DNA of 64,000 nt, from NCBI RefSeq assembly GCF_006345805.1, contig NC_043008.1, positions 76,446,001 to 76,510,000 on the forward strand, written 5' to 3'. The stretch is from Octopus sinensis. Its lineage: Eukaryota. Of the stretch, positions 6,817 to 57,984 are shown piece after piece. A program made the position numbers and the translations under genes. Position 1 is the first letter of the stretch. Every line of letters starts with the position of its first letter. The notes beneath the pieces are model-generated. The model made no database searches, was not told where the DNA came from, and saw nothing but the letters and a program-made list of their open reading frames with translations.

Positions 6817-8871
6817 TCTTTTTTTCTTCTTCTTTCAAATTTGCTTCCATTTCTTGCCGAGTGTCTTCCCGACTCCTAGGGCAAAGAAACTCATAGTATA
6901 CATTGGTAGGCCATTAAACTAAACTCACTAGTTCGTTCATTTTTTTTTTAAGTTAAATTAAAATACATAGGTAGTAATAGTTCTCACATCGGCAATGCTC
7001 TTCTCAATACGTGTGATGTACCAGTTAAGACAATCTTTTGCACTTCTTGCAGGGATGGTAAGCCAGGGATCATTCTCATATAATTTTCGGTTCCCTTCTT
7101 GATCATTCCTAGGGCTCCTACGATCACTGGTATTGTAACCGCCTTGAGATGCCACATTTTCTCAATTTCAATGAGCAAGACTTTATATTTTCTGAGCTTG
7201 TCAAACTCTTTCGCCGAGATATTATGATCACAGGGGATGCTCATGTGGATCAATAAGCAAACTTCATTGTTTTGGTCTTTCACAACAATATCCGGTTTAT
7301 TGGCTTTGATGGTTCGGTCTGTATGTACTGGAAAGTCCCACAGAATCGTTACATTTTCTCCTTCAGTTACAGCTTCAGGGTGGTGATTATACCACTTGTC
7401 GGCAGTTTTGATATTGTAATGCCGACTTATTAGCCAATGTAGATATTGGCCAACTCTGTCATGTCTTAATTTATACTCCACTGGTGCTAAGACTTTACAT
7501 CCAGAGATTAGGTGGTCCACTGTTTCAATCATGTCGTTGCAGAATCGGCATTTTGGTTCTGCCCCATTTTTCATCACATTGGCCTGGTAGTTCCGGGTTA
7601 ATAGGCTTTGATCTTGAGCAGCCAGGATGAAACCTTCGCTCTCTGCTTTTAGCCCTGAGCTCCGTAGCCACTGATGGGATTGCTTCTGGTCAACATCAGC
7701 TTGTTTGCTACGGGCCACATATTTGCCGTACAGAGGTTTCTCCTCCCACCTATCAGCCAATTGCTCGTGCGCTTTTTTCGTTGCCATTATTTTCACCTTC
7801 TTTGCAACAATAGTCGCCGTACTTCCCTCGGGTTGTTCAGTTTGGGTATCCTGCACGAGATCAATAGCAATTTTTTTGCTTTTCTTTATGATAGAATGAA
7901 GCTTCTTTCGTCTCTCGTGATTTTCCACGAGCTTTAGCATCCAGTCATTCGTTATTTCAAGATATTTGGCCAGTCCAATTGTGTTTGTTTTGTATGCTAG
8001 TTCAAATTGGATCAGGCCTCGACTTCCTTGGGCTCTGGGAAGGTAAAGGCGATCTACGTCTGCCTTTGGGTAGTGCATCCTATTACAACTCAGCAGCTTG
8101 CGTATTTTCCTATCTATATTCTTTACTTCACTCATATTCCAGTTCAACACATTGTAGCTATAAGTAACAAGTGGAACTGCTAAGGAATTTATAGCTAACA
8201 CCTTGTTACGTGCATTTAGTTCAGATTTCAGGACTGCACGAACTCTCCTATAACATTCCTTTCTGATCTTCTCTTTCATGCTTGCATGCTGAATACCAGA
8301 GCCTTCATTTATCCCTAAATATTTGTATGTCTGTTCTTGCTCAAGCTCTCTTATGACTGTGTCAACATCTAACAGGACTGAGTTTGTGGTCTTCACTTTC
8401 CCTTTCTGGAAAGTGGCCTTGGCACACTTCTCAAGCCCAAACTCCATCCCGATGTCATCGCTGAATGCTTTCACAGTGCGCAATAGGCCTTCAAGTTCAT
8501 TATCCTATTTACCATAGAGTTTTAAGTCATCCATATAAAACAGATGGCTTATTTTTTTATTGGCAATTTTATACCCATACCCTGTTCTGTTTAATTCACT
8601 TGTAAAGGGTATTAGGGCTATGCAGAATATTAAAGGTGAAAGTGAGTCACCTTGAAAAATTCCACAGTTGATGTTTATATTCTCTGAGGCAAGTACTCCA
8701 TTAGAGTGGTATAATTGGAGATTCGTGTTCCACAACGACATATTGTGCTTCAGGAAGCTTGAAATCACAGGGGAAATTTTGAAGATGTCCAGCGATCTCA
8801 AGATCCATGGAAACGGTATACTGTCGAAGGCCTTTTTATAGTCAATCCATGCGGAGCTGAGATTTCTGCGC
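6817..8871 (-). mobile_element. R4/Dong-clade non-LTR retrotransposon, 5'-truncated, young
   Basis: RT motifs WIDYKKAFDSI, GIFQGDSLSP, YMDDLKLY; CCHC CRFC..ETVDHLISGC; RHD; REL KPDIVV; flanked on both sides by (TTA)n. Confidence 0.93.
6984..8871 (-). pseudogene. RT-CCHC-REL polyprotein, truncated, one in-frame TAG at 8505-8507
   Basis: ORFs 8505-8966 and 6984-8483 are in the same frame: ...DDLKLYGK*DNELEGLLRTVKAF... Confidence 0.9.
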
Positions 8872-8929
<58 letters not shown>

Positions 8930-9640
8930 CCTTTTCTCTTGTTTCATGAAATTGGTATCGTCCCACAAATCATGGTGTAGAATGGAAAACATTTTTTTTT
9001 TCTGTCAGCAGGCGTTTTTCTTTTATTCTGTTCTTCATATCTGCTCTTACTTCGTATTAAAGATATTCTGCATGACTCTCGCTAACAGATTGCAGCTGGT
9101 TGAAATGTTTCCTGCACTTCAACTACTTCAAATTTAAAACAATATTTTTTACGATTTATTCCCCAAATCCTCTGTCACTGTTTCCAAGGATCTAAAAATA
9201 ACCGGCAGTATCCATAACCTTTTTAACTTCTCTGTTTCAGAACTTCAGGATTTCATACTTCAAGTTAGTATAATACTCCTCTTCCTTTCTTTTATCTCTT
9301 TGTGTCACATAGGCTTGTGATGTCGATAACAATGCATACTTCCTTTGTCAACGATTACAGTACCCTGTTGTATTCCTTATTTGGCTTACACAGTAAAGTT
9401 CAACAAAAGCTTCACTTCGCCGTTTTCAAAAGCTTGCATTGCTATTTCCATAAAAATGATTATAGCTTCTTTTTCTATCCTTGCAAAGTCAAATTTCCTG
9501 TAAAAATTCCATTGCATTGCTACAGAAGATCTTATTTCTATATTTAATATATTCATTCCGTATTAGCTGTGTACTTTCTAATACAATGAGCTATGGATTT
9601 CAGTTGAATAATTATATAATCTGCATTTGGGCAAGCTGTC
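8930..9640 (-). mobile_element. Degenerate R4/Dong-like N-terminal fragment
   Basis: HDLWDD peptide and K/E-rich pre-RT composition; adjacent to the TTA tract. Confidence 0.4.
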
Positions 9641-28921: not shown

Positions 28922-31876
28922 CATAGTATTAGTTGTCCATAATTTCAAACAGTCGGCTACACAGATCACAAATTCGTGACCTGTAAGGTTGATTTAGATA
29001 GCATATGTAGGCACGGCCCCGGCAACTGGAGGCTGAACACGTCACTCCCGGCTGTCCAAGCTTTCAGAGACTGGATTAAAGAGTTAGTTCAGAAAGCTTT
29101 GACGGGGGGGGGGGGCAATCGTCAATAATAAATTGTGGTATAAACTAAAAAGAGCCATCAAAGTAGAATCAGTTAGATTTAGTAAAGTTTAAGCTGTAGA
29201 AACAAATAGATTAGAGGGCGAGTTAGTGAGGAAGCTAGAAGTGGCGCTTAGGAAAGGCATTGCAACTGATGTACTGGCAGCGAGGTTGGCCCTCGATGAA
29301 CACTTCAACGCCGATCACGAAGGTTGCATGGTTAGGACTAAGGCCCATGCTCTGAGACAAGAGGGAACCAATGCTGCCCGATGGGCCCCAGTGGCTGATG
29401 CGCAAAATGGCGACAAAAACACCATTCACTCTTTGGTGAACCAAACTAGGCGCACGGTGAACGAGCCGGAGCAGATGTGTGCGGCTTTTCAGCAACATTT
29501 TGTCGAATTGTTCGGGACGAACGGTGGGCCAGATCGCAGGATGGATGCCACGACTCTCGGCAACTGGTGCGGAGTGTGGCGAATGGTCGATAACAATTAA
29601 AGAAATATAGGACGAGATAATGGGCTGCATGGTGGAGGGGGGGAGAGAAACCGCCGGTTTGAGATGGTCTGCCCTACGAGCTTTATTCTAGTATGCAAGA
29701 CTTGTTTGCAGGCCTCTTGGTAGATATCTACTGCAACTGGCAACAGAATGAGAGAATTCCCAAATCTGTTAGCCGAGGAGCAGTGCTACTGCTAAGAAAG
29801 GATCCAAACAAGGGCGAGGTATTAGATAATTTTAGGTCCATCATTCAGCTTAATGTAGACATGAAAATTTTGGGCAAAGTTTTAGTGAAGAGGTTGGCAC
29901 TCGTCCTCGAGAAACTGGTTGGAGACGCACAAACATGCGCCGTCCCAAACAGGTCCATCCTTGACAACCTCCACCTCATGCGCTGCATCATGGATAGTGT
30001 AGTTAAGAAATCTGGTATGGGTGGGGCTTTGATCAATTTAGATCAGTCAAAAGCCTTTGATAGTGTTGACCATCAATATCTGGTGGTTTGTTCTAACGGC
30101 GGCCGATTTCGGTCCGGTTTTCCTCTGTTAGATCGCTGCCATGTAGTGACATCTGCTCGGTAGTCCGGGTGAATGGTCACATATCGAAACCATTCAACAT
30201 CGTGCATTCGGTCTGTCAAGGGTGCCCTCTCTCGTCCCTTCTGTATGTACTGACCCTCGAACCATTACTTCAGAAACTGGAGACGTTAAGAGGTATCTCG
30301 CATGAACTAGGATGTGGGGGTGTTGTATCGGCATAAGCTGACGACGTCACTGTCATAGTGTTGGACGACAAGTACATAGATTTGGTCAGCACTATCGTTA
30401 AAGAATACGAGCAAGTAAAGGGAGCAAAGATTAAACCGGGAAAATCGGTGGTTCTGCAGCTCGGCACCTGGAGAGGCAGATCCATGCTGACCTTGTAGGA
30501 CGTTGGACAGTCAGGCCCGTAAAATTGCTCGGTGTCTGGTTCGGTCCAAATTTCCAACTGGAGAGGAACTGGAGCGAGGTGGCGAGCAGGGTAGCCATTC
30601 TCACCCAGAAATCGGCCGAGCGAAAGCTATACTTGAAAGGTCAGGCAGAGGTGGCGAACACTTACGTCGTCTCAGTCATTTACTACCGCCTCACCGTCGT
30701 GCTTTGCCCCAGCTCGTACCTGGTCAAGCTGGACAGTTTGCTTTTCTGCCTCTTATGGAAGGGGCGGCCTCTCCTGGTCAGACGCTCCATTTGCTGTCAA
30801 CACCCTATGAATGGAGGGCTGGGTTTTCTGTGGCTATTGATATACAGACATGCGCTGAGCTTGCGACTCATCCTGCGTTTCCTCAACGACAGTGCGCAGG
30901 TGTGGTCACCTTTGTCAGACTAGCTTTACTACAACTCATCTCTTTGAGTGAGCTGCAATTTTGGATTAAGCGTAGATCGAGGCTGGAGGTCTGGCACCTT
31001 AAGTCGCTAGGCGTTCACGCTCCTCAGCCGATCGGGCAATGCGGTTAGAGGAATTTCTACTATGGCGTTGTATAGAAAGTTATTAGTGAAAGGAAACGAC
31101 AACATTCTTGGAGAGACTCTAAGCATCGATGAATTTCAACTCACCAGTCTGTTCCAGAGGACTTTCTGGCCAGGGCTTATGGATAACTTCCAGAAATACC
31201 TGGCCTGGCAGTGTTATAGGGAAGCTTTGCCTGTTCGAGATAAACTGTACAGGCATGGAAGTGGCCGAGATGTGCACAGATTGACGAAACCCTATGTGAC
31301 TGAGCATATCTGATATATGGTTTTATGTCGAACACCTGCTGACACGTGTAGGACGTGTACGCTTGTTGGCTGATTCCATCATGAAGATTGCCCCGCCGCC
31401 TTCCTTTGACCAGCAAGAGAAGGCAATTTTCAACTGTCTCGTGGCTTTTGCGAAAGAGGTTGTGTGGTGGTCTAGGCTGAAAGGGCTGAAGAAACATACT
31501 TTTCTCTTTGACCTACCCCTTATCAACTTTTTCAGATACCATCTGGAAAGGAAGGTGAGGGTAGAGAGAGAAGTGCTGACTTCCAGCAATTTTGTTAAAA
31601 GGTGGGTGAATGTGGCGAAGACGGTCCGTGTCAACTTTGAGCATGCGCTTGTGAGTTTCCAAGGCTGAGAAAGATATAAAGATGGGGCGCGCATGTGGAT
31701 TTTTCGTGGGGTCTCCATGAGTAGCCCAGTGTTGCTTGCTTCCTTTAGGCATTTTCTTTGTTATTTTTTCATTGTTGTCGACTTTTACACGACACTTTAT
31801 CAAACCCCACTTTGTCCTTCATGTTTTGTAATGTCCAATCTTCTTTTTGTCGGCCCTTGTGGCTAATAAAGAAACG

Positions 31877-35609: not shown

Positions 35610-36620
35610 TACGAGGGGTGTATGAAAAGTTTTGAGCCTAACCTAGAAACGGGGCTGCTAGTAGCTGAAACAATTTTTCTGGTAAGTACAGTCTTTTCGG
35701 AGTATTCTTGCTCTTTTTCATGATTCTGATTTTTTTTTTTTTTGTTACAGATTTTTGAATAAACAAGTGTCGAAGTTACAAGCAAAATGGAGAAAACTGA
35801 GTATCGTGCTGTCATAAAGTACCTTCATTTGAAAGGCATGACTCCATCAGAAATCCATGAAGATATGGGGGAACCTTAACAAACAATGCTCCTTCATATG
35901 CAACAGTTAAATGCTGGGTAAATGAATTCCAGCGTGACAGGGGGAGTGTGGAAGATGATCCCATAACAGGGAGGCCTCCAGCTGCAACCACCGAGGACAA
36001 CATTGATCTTGCTCTTGGTATGATAATGCATGATCGTCGAATATCATGTCGCCAGATAGCTGAGAGATTGGGCATCGCAAATGAAAGAGCAGAAAACATT
36101 GTGACAAAAGAACTTGGGTTCTCAATGGTTTCTGCAAGGTGGGTCCCTTGCCTTTTGACTCCTGGACAGAAACGCACCAGGTGCACTTTGTCCACGAGCA
36201 CACTGGAACAGAGGAGTCCTTTTTCATCACGACAATGCTCCAGCGCACTCCTCAGTGGTTGCCATTGCAACAATTCGGGATTGTGGATACGAACTTGTTC
36301 CCCATCTGCCCTATTCACCAGACTTAGCCCTCTCTGACTTTCATCTATTCCCGTAAAATGAAAAAAGCCCTGGTTGGTTGCCATTTTGCCACTGAAAATG
36401 TCATCATAGACACTGTAGGAAGTTTCTAGTCTCAAGTCTCAAACAAAATAGTTCCTCTACGCCGGGATAATGGCACTTCAGTACCGGTGGAGAAAGTGTT
36501 CAGCCATCAAAGGAGACTATGTTGAAAAATAAATCATCAGAAGTCTTGTACTATGTTTTTTTTTGCTTTCTTTTTTTCTTCTTTTTTTTGGAGGTTCAAG
36601 ACTTTTCAGATACCCTCGTA
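35610..36620 (+). mobile_element. Mariner, both TIRs, internally deleted
   Basis: TA-CGAGGGGTGTATGAAAAGT...ACTTTTCAGATACCCTCG-TA; MEKTEYRAVIKYL, ARWVPCLLT, HDNAPAH, YSPDLA; the region with the first catalytic Asp is deleted. Confidence 0.93.
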
Positions 36621-54362: not shown

Positions 54363-54484
54363 TCTCTGACGAGGCCTTGAGATATATATAAGCACCTCAT
54401 TTTCAACTGCCTATTACCCAAATACATTTGACTAATATAGGCAGAATGAGATGCTTTTATCTATGGGCTGAAACAGCTGTAAGG
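54363..54484 (+). ncRNA. Putative type-I hammerhead ribozyme with long stem II
   Basis: TCT-CTGACGA (54366)-GGCC..AAGCACCTCATT..CTGCCTAT / ATAGGCAG..AATGAGATGCTT..GGGCT-GAAA (54470)-CAGCTG-TA-AGG. Confidence 0.72.
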
Positions 54485-55436: not shown

Positions 55437-56029
55437 GCTGGTGATGTCCTGTACCCATATATAGGACAATAACATAAAGAACAACCCTTCATCAGTTGTC
55501 AGCTGTCTATCTATTCCTCATTTCGAGCATTGAAAGAAAATATGAGTCTTCGAAGACTGTTGCTCCCATAAGTAGCAAAATACAATTTGGGATTTATAGA
55601 GGGTCAAAGTTAGGAACAAAAACAGGACAGATGAGACATAAAAGGAAACCGAACGAAAACAAACATGGGGAGTTGTTAGAGCAGAACGAGAGTAAAATAC
55701 CGAACGCTGGGGAAATACTTCCTTTGACAAGAGAATAGTTAGAAGAGAGAGATAGGATACGGCCAGTCCTTAGGAGAGTCCTGAAAGAAAGGAAAGATGA
55801 TAACGTGAGGAATAGAAAGATGGCCGATGGTCAAGTGTGAGCAACGAGAGAGAAACGGAGAAGGAGGGAGACAGAGACAGATAGAAAACGGTGAATGAGT
55901 GGAAAAAATTAGGAATTAGAGAAAGGATGAGAGAAAACAGTATAAACTAGAGTCGCATCAAAAAGATAAACTTCCTTGGAAATGGATGCGTGGCGTTCAA
56001 TCAAATAATAATATAAATAATATATATAG

Positions 56030-56865
56030 GGAGAGTTTACGAATAAAACAAAAGACAGGTGATGTACAAAACAAACAGATGTATTAGTATAATGCTTAGA
56101 AATAGAAAAAGTCTGTTACGTTTCGAGCCTACGCTCTTCTACAGAAAGGGACACAGAAAAAAAAAACGAGAGAAACAAGGAGAGTAAAAATGTGTGTAGT
56201 GCCTACGATCTATCATGGCGACTAGTGCTGGACAGAATGGTCAAACGCTTAAAAAAGTAGGGGAGATAACAAAGTAAAGATGACCCCCAACACGAAGGTA
56301 CGTGTGTGTATAAGAGAGTATGTATGTGCATGTGTGTTGTGATGTGATGTGTAATGTTGTATGGTGTAGTGTGGTGTGGCGTGATGTTGTTGGGAGGTGG
56401 GGGAGGCGAGGGTGGGGAAGTACAGGTGGGATGAGGGTTCGGCTGAGGGTTCGGCTGAGGGTTGGGACTTGTGGGTAGGCAGAGGGTTGGGATAAAGGTG
56501 GGGTAGGATGGGGTAGGATAGGGGTAGGATGGGGGTAGGATAGGGGTAGGATGGGGGTGGGAAGCATAGGGAAGGTGGAGTAGGGATGTGTATGGGGTGG
56601 GTGGGCTTATAGGGGAGGGGACGGTGGGTAAGTGAGGAGAGAAGAGAGAAAGAGAGTAAGAGAGAAGAGAGAAAGAGAGTAAGAGAGAAGAGAGAAAGAG
56701 ATTGTGAAAGAGAAGGAGAGAAGAGAGAAAGAGAATAAGAGAGGAAAGAGAGTAAGAGGGAAGAGGGAAAGAGGGGAGAGAAAGAGAAAAAGAGAGTAGG
56801 AGAGAAGGCAGAAAGAGAGAAAGTGTGTAAGAGAGAAGAGGGAAAGAGAGTAGGGGTGAAAAGAT
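56030..56865 (-). mobile_element. PLE 3' end/pLTR fragment related to 39370-41000
   Basis: CT-rich repeats then CCCATCCTACCCCACCTTTATC, similar to 40960-40995; HHR-like CTGTAGA-A-GAGC-GTAG-GCTC-GAAA-CG-TA at about 56116-56145. Confidence 0.55.
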
Positions 56866-57014
56866 GTGTGTGTGTGTGTGTGTGTGTGTGGATGTGGATG
56901 TATTTATGTATGTATATTAATTTATAAATTTATTAATATCATCTTGACCGGTTTATTACATGATATCTACCCGATAAAATCATATATAGATTTTATCCTG
57001 AATTTTAAAATATA

Positions 57015-57059
<45 letters not shown>

Positions 57060-57122
57060 ATGTTATTAGTGAATTGAAGAAATGGAGTTGAACGAAGATT
57101 GAACAGAAATCCTTTTATTGCA

Positions 57123-57201
57123 TTCTACACGTGTTTCGAAAGCCACATTTACCAAATTCCGATTGAATAAGGAGACCATATTGTGTCTTTCTCTTCAGGA
57201 A
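57123..57201 (-). ncRNA. Type-I hammerhead ribozyme (left arm)
   Basis: Mirror copy of 57384-57463. Confidence 0.75.
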
Positions 57202-57383
57202 GAAATAGGAATTCCGTTGGCAGAACAAAAACAGAACAGAGGCGCAGCAAAACAAATCGAACGAGGAGGCTCCTAAGAGCCCATAGCCAAACTGTTGGCC
57301 ATGGGCTCTTAGGAGCCTCCTCGTTCGATTTGTTTTGCTGCGCCTCTGTTCTGTTTTTGTTCTGCCAACGGAATTCCTATTTC

Positions 57384-57463
57384 TTCCTGAAGAGAAAGAC
57401 ACAATATGGTCTCCTTATTCAATCGGAATTTGGTAAATTGTGGCTTTCGAAACACGTGTAGAA
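57384..57463 (+). ncRNA. Type-I hammerhead ribozyme (right arm)
   Basis: TTC-CTGAAGA (57387)-GAAAGACACAAT / ATTGTGGCTTTC-GAAA (57449)-CACGTG-TA-GAA; GUA site after 57460; AATAAA at 57467. Confidence 0.78.
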
Positions 57464-57675
57464 TGCAATAAAAGGATTTCTGTTCAATCTTCGTTCAACT
57501 CCATTTCTTCAATTCACTAATAATATTAAAATTCAATTATCCGCACCAACGCACGGTTGCAACACCATATGGTTGTACCTCCAACCGTGCTTTCTTCTGC
57601 TGTGATTTTTGCTACCAAGGTATCGGTTAAACTTTTGATTAATCTGCAACAAGATTATTCATCTTTCTATTTCAC

Positions 57676-57765
<90 letters not shown>

Positions 57766-57984
57766 TATATATACATATATAATATATATATCATATATTT
57801 TAAAATTCAGGATAAAATCTATATATGATTTTATCGGGTAGATAGCATGTAATAAACCGGTCAAGATGATATTAATATATATATGTCTGTGTGTGTGTAC
57901 ATATATATTTGTATGTTTGTATGTATGTATATGTATATATGTATATTTGTGTATGCATGTGCGTGTTGGTATGAATGTGTGCAT

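Follow-up and report, generated by a model that had tools for sequence, protein, structure and literature searches.

Inverted insertions of EN+ Penelope-like elements (PLEs) are known, and in the accessible text of two reports (PMC3846280, PMC8557442) they are described with a head-to-head inverted pLTR, a tail at one end only, a palindrome at the junction, a microsatellite target and no visible target-site duplication. The same text states the origin of the inverted ends and of the one-sided tail to be open. All of these features could be recognized at a locus of Octopus sinensis located in the window, a 64,000-nucleotide stretch of DNA (C12:76446001-76510000) analyzed here. The described tails measure 30-40 bp, whereas that of the octopus family measures 154 nt; further, the one-sided rule was quantified in the octopus family (44/46), in which either arm may be the longer one.

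Among C-terminal EN+ PLEs, the Hydra clade is characterized, in the part of PMC8557442 that describes it, by a DKT motif, an RWK-like motif, conserved E and N residues flanked by CxxC and CxH, a CxCX5C linker, a hammerhead and insertion into (TA)n. The octopus element shares the single ORF, DKT, RW-x, the CxxC/CxH arrangement around E and N, the hammerhead and (TA)n. It differs in its length of 3.64 kb, compared to under 3 kb given for the clade (PMC8557442), in a Ser/Asn-rich insert before the endonuclease, in a degenerate CxCX5C and in having RWL rather than RWK. Minimal type-I hammerheads of metazoan PLEs, as reported in the sections of PMC4209133 available to us, have a short helix I, a long helix II, a G10.1-C11.1 pair and a palindromic helix III for which dimerization is predicted to be necessary, all of which could be found in the octopus motifs; dual motifs on opposite strands at a distance of 100-700 bp have already been reported in the same paper.

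According to the available portion of PMC11167929, the PAc protein (Poseidon, anole) cleaves and extends both target strands in vitro and starts reverse transcription at two internal sites bounding the tail, ribozyme cleavage being dispensable. The octopus insertions, as interpreted below, resemble this system in the two internal start sites bounding the tail, in the extension of both target strands and in the AT-rich target. PAc belongs to another clade, its tail is 30-40 bp in contrast to 154 nt, and its sites are adjacent and inside the ORF, whereas the octopus sites lie upstream of the ATG and 154 nt apart. In LINE-1 twin priming, the other target end primes a second cDNA, giving a 5' inversion, and copies reaching the RNA cap carry an extra G (PMC11702581, accessible text); both points have a probable counterpart in the octopus family. 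However, the second primer site of L1 is variable and its two cDNAs barely overlap, while in the octopus family both sites are fixed and one RNA stretch appears to be copied twice. Retrozymes are head-to-tail tandems with a sense hammerhead in each repeat, and non-LTR retrozymes are like the octopus unit in being ORF-less and pLTR-derived and in carrying a type-I hammerhead (10.64898/2026.07.22.740005, in the text at hand); the octopus unit differs in being head-to-head with one ribozyme per strand.

The locus and its parent element

The searched genome was 2.72 Gb in size and microsatellite-rich. Positions within the unit are given as u coordinates, with u1 at window position 57295 in the right arm and u1-u386 corresponding to 57295-57680. 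Arm-to-arm alignment of 57060-57292 with 57293-57526 revealed 98.3% identity over 466 columns, which agrees with the near-perfect palindrome described in an earlier reading made from the sequence only; the differences consisted of two substitutions, a 1-nt deletion in the left-arm stem II and an offset at the centre. That reading had also taken the locus for an ORF-less, pLTR-only head-to-head unit of a Penelope-like element, and this could be confirmed, as could the further hairpin that it noticed in the continuation of the right arm, for which 200 of 200 shuffles folded worse than the real sequence. The right arm was 100% identical to another locus, L002. Pieces of the unit were present in 20 of 24 listed sequencing runs, the RNA origin of 8 of these runs being a guess; since the family has thousands of copies, this does not indicate expression of the window locus.

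Features of the head-to-head insertion and its flanks (window positions)
Feature	Position	Strand	Remarks
Left copy of host flank, fragment of older unrelated repeat	56924..57009	.	family members 81-94% identical
(TA)n target, left side	57010..57061	.	
Untailed arm, pLTR ~u-2 to u232	57060..57293	-	u232 end common to 68 of 156 mapped 3' ends (approximate counts)
AATAAA, left copy	57114..57119	-	predicted motif only
Minimal type-I hammerhead motif, left copy, 1-nt stem II deletion	57123..57201	-	predicted cut after 57126; C3 at 57198, H17 at 57126
Head-to-head junction at the parent's quasi-palindrome AAACAGTTT; putative transcription start of the element RNA	57291..57296	.	identical junction at 9 loci, variants at 39
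Tailed arm, pLTR u1-u386	57294..57680	+	97-100% identical to 40 scored genomic copies
Minimal type-I hammerhead motif, right copy, palindromic helix III ACACGUGU	57384..57463	+	predicted cut after 57460
AATAAA, right copy	57467..57472	+	kept in at least 14 of 15 aligned copies by eye
154-nt 'tail' between two fixed 3' ends	57527..57680	+	
Hairpin within tail, candidate reverse transcription pause site	57551..57590	+	z -3.65; 5 of 51 tailed arms stop near its 3' foot
(TA)n target, right side	57679..57798	.	
Inverted duplicate of left host flank	57782..57884	.	

Both (TA)n runs were bracketed by an outer inverted repeat (56924-57026/57782-57884, 97%) that is absent from the sequence-only reading. 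The older repeat from which it derives was present in a single orientation in 4/4 other loci inspected, and the two flank copies shared private bases when compared with four family members, indicating that one host segment was duplicated in inverted form. A similar flank duplication was observed in 1 of 44 other insertions (L192; 42 nt, 100%). An interpretation of the outer repeat as a MITE was rejected, since in other members of its family the sequence occurs a single time, in an internal position. Palindromes of 100-600 bp in host DNA, unrelated to the Penelope-like family, were also seen near insertions, in the flanks of L008, L023, L027, L039, L136, L141 and L142, and fold-back structures seem to be common in this genome. 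Elsewhere in the window, translations of 6984-8969 (-), 29663-30923 (+) and 35861-36337 (+) revealed fragments which we take to resemble two non-LTR retrotransposons and a mariner-type transposase. The region 55500-56200 looks like the terminus of a further Penelope-type repeat; judged by eye, its minus strand may hold a variant hammerhead core near 56115-56145.

The unit does not stand alone; it forms the pLTR end of a Penelope-like element whose monomer measures 3.64 kb and whose ORF of about 900 aa encodes a reverse transcriptase (RT) and, at the C-terminus, a GIY-YIG endonuclease (EN). Open frames of 899-914 aa were found in L085, L086, L089 and L095. Of these, L086 was 99% identical across the unit, and ORF-bearing copies of the window's own subfamily were present. 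In other copies a GIY-YIG-type C-terminus was encoded upstream of u1, while downstream of u386 tandem copies entered the ORF, with an ATG at about u432; tandem or partial-tandem copies forming pLTRs were seen in L087, L093, L095 and L201. Among 8,000 scored candidates, 37 database homologues of the parent protein could be retrieved at 30-42% identity, and the RT and EN motifs aligned with 9 database homologues. Pfam analysis of two parent ORFs returned no significant family, so the domain names rest on motifs, namely DKT (QSDKT), RW-L (RIRWL) and CxxC..E..N..CxH (CNLCVSE..VNG..RCPH), with no CCHH.

Compared with the published description of the Hydra clade, these motifs, the (TA)n insertion and the pLTR hammerhead were all present. 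The CxCX5C linker before the endonuclease, however, was reduced to a single Cys (SGCSSRN/SGCRSRN), whereas three Cys were kept in 9/9 aligned homologues, and the Hydra-clade label judged from these motifs is therefore provisional. A Ser/Asn-rich insert between RT thumb and endonuclease (approximately residues 630-760 in the ORFs of L085, L089 and L095) was absent in 8 of 9 aligned homologues; N-rich inserts are described for rotifer Penelope elements in the available text of PMC3846280. Another abundant PLE family of Hydra-like type, in which the CNC..CP..C linker is intact, was also encountered (L216-L245; 16,977 first-look candidates with an endonuclease query). No own hammerhead was detected by the descriptor within 1.5 kb in 28 of its 30 loci, so it could not be used for covariation.

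Head-to-head insertions across the family

A copy-number search suggested in the sequence-only reading returned 3,739 exact genome matches of a 20-mer from the ribozyme 3' half, and 0 for the control. The right arm gave 2,421 first-look candidates, of which the 40 scored were 97-100% identical. The first 100 matches of the 20-mer in order (C1, 1-73 Mb) were taken as a positional sample, and the 60 insertions fetched accounted for 92 of them (6 of the remainder were seen in other loci and 2 were not fetched). Neighbouring pairs closer than 7 kb within these 100 matches comprised 33 divergent, 1 convergent and 1 tandem, the sole tandem pair being of element length (3,650 bp). The palindromic form was thereby found to recur. 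The retrozyme-like nature proposed along with it was not supported, since copies stand head-to-head rather than in tandem and the ORF-bearing L086 is nearly identical over the unit. Head-to-head pairs are the normal footprint of the family.

After filtering out matches in an AT-rich reference stretch, the end classes of the 60 insertions were 44 with one short and one tailed arm, 2 short on both sides, 0 tailed on both sides, 2 unresolved and 12 single-armed. An inverted 5'-truncated copy lying adjacent, with a tail at one end only, is thus the pattern of 44 of the 46 resolved two-armed insertions (p 3e-11), the tailed end lying 154 nt beyond the short one and both bordering (TA)n. Across loci, 153 of 156 mapped 3' ends fell on the two fixed sites (u~232 and u~386), counts that are approximate because de-duplication by sequence context left some repeats; the positional sample is free of this effect. 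Nearly all 3' ends that did not continue into a tandem copy were followed by (TA)n.

The window's exact junction was found at 9 loci with different flanks, 8 of which had both full arms, and a looser pattern located a near-identical centre at 39 other places. These represented three subfamily states (28, 7 and 2) and 2 mixed cases, which indicates that the unit forms repeatedly from each active subfamily. The recurrence of one centre with different flanks argues against both an assembly artefact and a single palindromic master copy. In 7 of the 39 symmetric centres an extra G/C stood beside u-2.

Among 39 simple two-armed cases, the arm extending further 5' was the tailed one in 13 and the untailed one in 16; the other 10 were symmetric (within 10 nt), compared to 2.6 symmetric cases expected by permutation (p 5e-5). 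Partner arms differed by 1.2 substitutions, as against 4.8 between insertions (186 nt, 21 insertions). This closeness is expected if both arms were copied from one template, and equally if one subfamily is active at a time. The 5' ends ranged from u342 to u-2902, and 13 of the 51 arms that reach u-1 stopped at u-2/u-1. The stop corresponds to the A of CAGT, a sequence similar to the initiator consensus. A G preceded 13 of 20 arms ending at u-2/u-1 outside palindromic centres, at a position occupied by C or A in the parent (p 1.5e-5 against 0.2). This count leaves out 17 arms at palindromic centres, and for several of the 13 G's microhomology with the partner arm is an alternative reading. In 5 of 51 cases tailed arms ended within a few nt of the 3' foot of the tail hairpin, a pattern that RT pausing would produce. 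The 5'-end hot spots at u-1 and u~298 both begin with GTTT (L161, L191, L193, L198, L199 and the u-1 ends), and a third cluster of 5' ends was noticed near u20-37.

Hammerhead motifs and AATAAA

The sequence-only reading had assigned one hammerhead motif to each strand, and the assignment was upheld. On both strands a 3-bp stem I, CUGAAGA, a 12-bp stem II, GAAA, the palindrome ACACGUGU and UA could be located, so that the CUGANGA/GAAA/UH core, helices I and II and the palindromic helix III that define a minimal type-I hammerhead are all present. In the right arm, TTC occupies 57384-86, CUGAAGA 57387-93, stem II 57394-405/57437-448 (11/12 paired, as noted earlier), GAAA 57449-52, ACACGUGU 57452-59 and GAA 57461-63, with the predicted cut following A57460. 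A descriptor, composed with the motif already in view, gave 3 matches in the window (both arms and an unrelated one at 54366) and a background of 0.01 matches per shuffled 64 kb (100 shuffles). The Rfam model Hammerhead_1 (RF00163) scored 11 bits (E 7.8), below the gathering score of 34; the long stem II lies outside the Rfam model. An Rfam scan of 7 kb returned 45 matches with no hammerhead row, comprising only sub-gathering miRNA-type hairpin matches.

The lowest-energy fold of the left hammerhead lacked stem II, of which one base is lost. Across 15 copies, 9/11 stem II pairs never varied and the stem II changes included 0 compensatory pairs, the copies being 92% identical and thus too alike for covariation; within the family the hammerhead stems were conserved. 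Three other repeat families of the same genome were found to share this layout with different stems and different helix III palindromes, which supports the hammerhead annotation. A second, unrelated minimal type-I motif at window 54363-54484 (+) has CUGACGA, a stem-loop II of about 96 nt and the helix III ACAGCUGU, and adjoins (TA)n; its repeat family comprised 1,364 candidates, and the motif was intact in 10 of 12 loci. Motifs of other families at L206:2545 (+) and L244:105 (-) have the helix III sequences ACAAUUGU and ACAUGU and stem II lengths of 10 and 13 bp, respectively.

Minimal PLE hammerheads are described in the accessible text of PMC4209133 as showing no cleavage as monomers and low cleavage as dimers. 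The computed energy of the helix III self-duplex was -10.3 kcal/mol. Helix III would need a second sense copy, and the window hammerheads lie on opposite strands. The fold of the whole palindrome was computed at -419.7 kcal/mol with 452/461 nt paired, compared to -13.7 for the ribozyme region alone. Read-through from either side would yield the antisense arm first and the hairpin fold is stronger, so the fold-dependent switch suggested earlier is unlikely. The hammerheads at this locus may be regarded as passengers that came with the pLTR; in any read-through RNA they are predicted to be blocked, and dsRNA would be expected if the locus is read through.

AATAAA starts 6 nt beyond the predicted cut on both strands. 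Its presence had been correctly noted, whereas its designation as a polyA signal was not sustained: 0 of 156 mapped 3' ends fell at u190-210, just behind the motif, and 0 of 156 were followed by poly(A). The hexamer occurs 146 times in the window on both strands, giving a chance of approximately 3% within any 30 nt. It may serve the parent mRNA, though neither insertion ends nor poly(A) tracts point to it. The ribozyme cut site was likewise dismissed as an insertion boundary, as 0 of 156 3' ends lay at u166 and no cluster of 5' ends occurred at u167 among 39.

Origin of the head-to-head form

We consider it very probable that the locus arose when the pLTR end of a high-copy Penelope-like retroelement, without its ORF, was inserted head to head into (TA)n, likely through two reverse transcriptions primed from the two ends of one DNA break. 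The element protein would cut both strands of (TA)n; one target end would prime a cDNA at RNA site u386 and the other at u232; both cDNAs would extend toward the RNA 5' end, and their two ends would then be joined head to head. At the window locus both cDNAs likely reached the capped transcription start near u-2, which would result in a nearly perfect palindrome. PLE reverse transcriptases are not known to carry RNase H. All insertion classes fit two primings, one per break end; however, the outer inverted duplication of host sequence is not explained by this model and counts against it.

The centre of the palindrome may correspond to the transcription start, and the unit to a double copy of the 5' leader. 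This reading draws on the clustering of ends at u-2/u-1, the preceding G, the analogy to L1, where copies extending to the RNA cap bear an extra G (PMC11702581, accessible text), and the promoter located inside the Penelope pLTR according to the available text of PMC2377424. Against it counts that a 5' pLTR beginning at u-2 was seen in 0 of 13 long loci examined. Extended to the whole family, the proposal states that every two-armed insertion derives from one break, with one end primed at each of two fixed sites that lie 154 nt apart in a capped sense RNA, and that pLTR-only palindromes are double 5'-leader copies whose centre marks the transcription start. This extension is tentative and falls somewhat short of being probable. 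If true, one-break two-site priming would account for the inverted pLTR and the one-sided tail without an antisense template, whereas self-priming on an antisense template is proposed in the available text of PMC3846280. In the literature searched, which covered few subscription journals, no paper applying twin priming to Penelope elements was found.

A single cDNA could instead fold back at AAACAGTTT, copy itself and be resolved at u232. The parent is quasi-palindromic at the centre, and at the window locus such a snap-back would give identical letters, leaving the element and its dead-end status the same. The excess of symmetric junctions, one of them at u-1542 on both arms, the position of the centre on the quasi-palindrome and the variants shared by the arms are all in its favor, and self-priming is the published hypothesis in the portion of PMC3846280 at hand. 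However, the untailed arm extends further 5' in 16 of 39 insertions, and the arms do not overlap in L191, L193, L194 and L198; an untailed arm of either type cannot be a self-primed copy of the tailed cDNA. Moreover, the single-armed insertions L016 and L188 also end at u-2/u-1, and in 2 of 39 centres the joined arms differ in subfamily state. Snap-back as the sole mechanism had been suggested by a length-biased sample and was dropped after the counts from the positional sample. It is an unlikely account of the locus, and it may still hold for some symmetric copies, the window locus included.

It is improbable that the pLTR-only palindromes are a self-propagating, non-autonomous family of retrozyme- or SINE-like type, whose outward transcript from the centre is copied in trans by the protein of the element. 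The right arm does span the inferred start site to u386 and thereby both RT start sites, the exact form recurs, and pLTR sequences can act in trans according to the accessible text of PMC3846280. Nevertheless, the form arises separately in each subfamily with that subfamily's letters, its centres vary, 5' ends range from u342 to u-2902, the window's subfamily has ORF-bearing copies, and no head-to-tail array of the short unit was seen.

A locus kept as a regulatory RNA element, either as dsRNA for siRNA or A-to-I editing or as a cleavage switch, is more doubtful still and would be very surprising. Read-through RNA would form a duplex of about 230 bp, and rotifer Penelope families are reported to be under small-RNA silencing in the available text of PMC3846280. 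Yet the copy is young, given the right arm shared without change with L002, it is one of thousands, its left stem II is damaged, and no sign of locus-specific conservation was observed; a switch is disfavoured by thermodynamics and transcription order, and siRNA at the family level would amount to normal transposon silencing. That the palindrome is a fold-back artefact of the assembly or library is scarcely credible: fold-back chimeras mimic perfect palindromes and the host flank is also duplicated in inverted form, but the arms are unequal, only one of them carrying the 154-nt tail, and three positions differ between them, the identical junction occurs at 9 loci with different flanks, and both outer ends lie on the family's two fixed sites.

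The locus is real, was correctly described and is ordinary, being a by-product insertion of a known kind of retroelement. It is most likely a dead end. Dual opposite-strand hammerheads (PMC4209133) as well as junction palindromes and inverted pLTRs tailed on one side (PMC3846280, PMC8557442) are already published, as far as the accessible text of these papers extends; the family, its 154-nt tail and the counts are new, although this family or one close to it may be listed in the supplements of PMC8557442. The value of the finding lies in the family statistics, the locus being a single stump among the thousands left by a retroelement family that looks active. The one-short-one-tailed rule, the possibility of either arm being longer and the G at the most frequent 5' end predict that RT starts at u232 and u386 and that the RNA has its capped 5' end at u-2. 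Hypothetically, hundreds of such palindromes across the genome could supply dsRNA for silencing.
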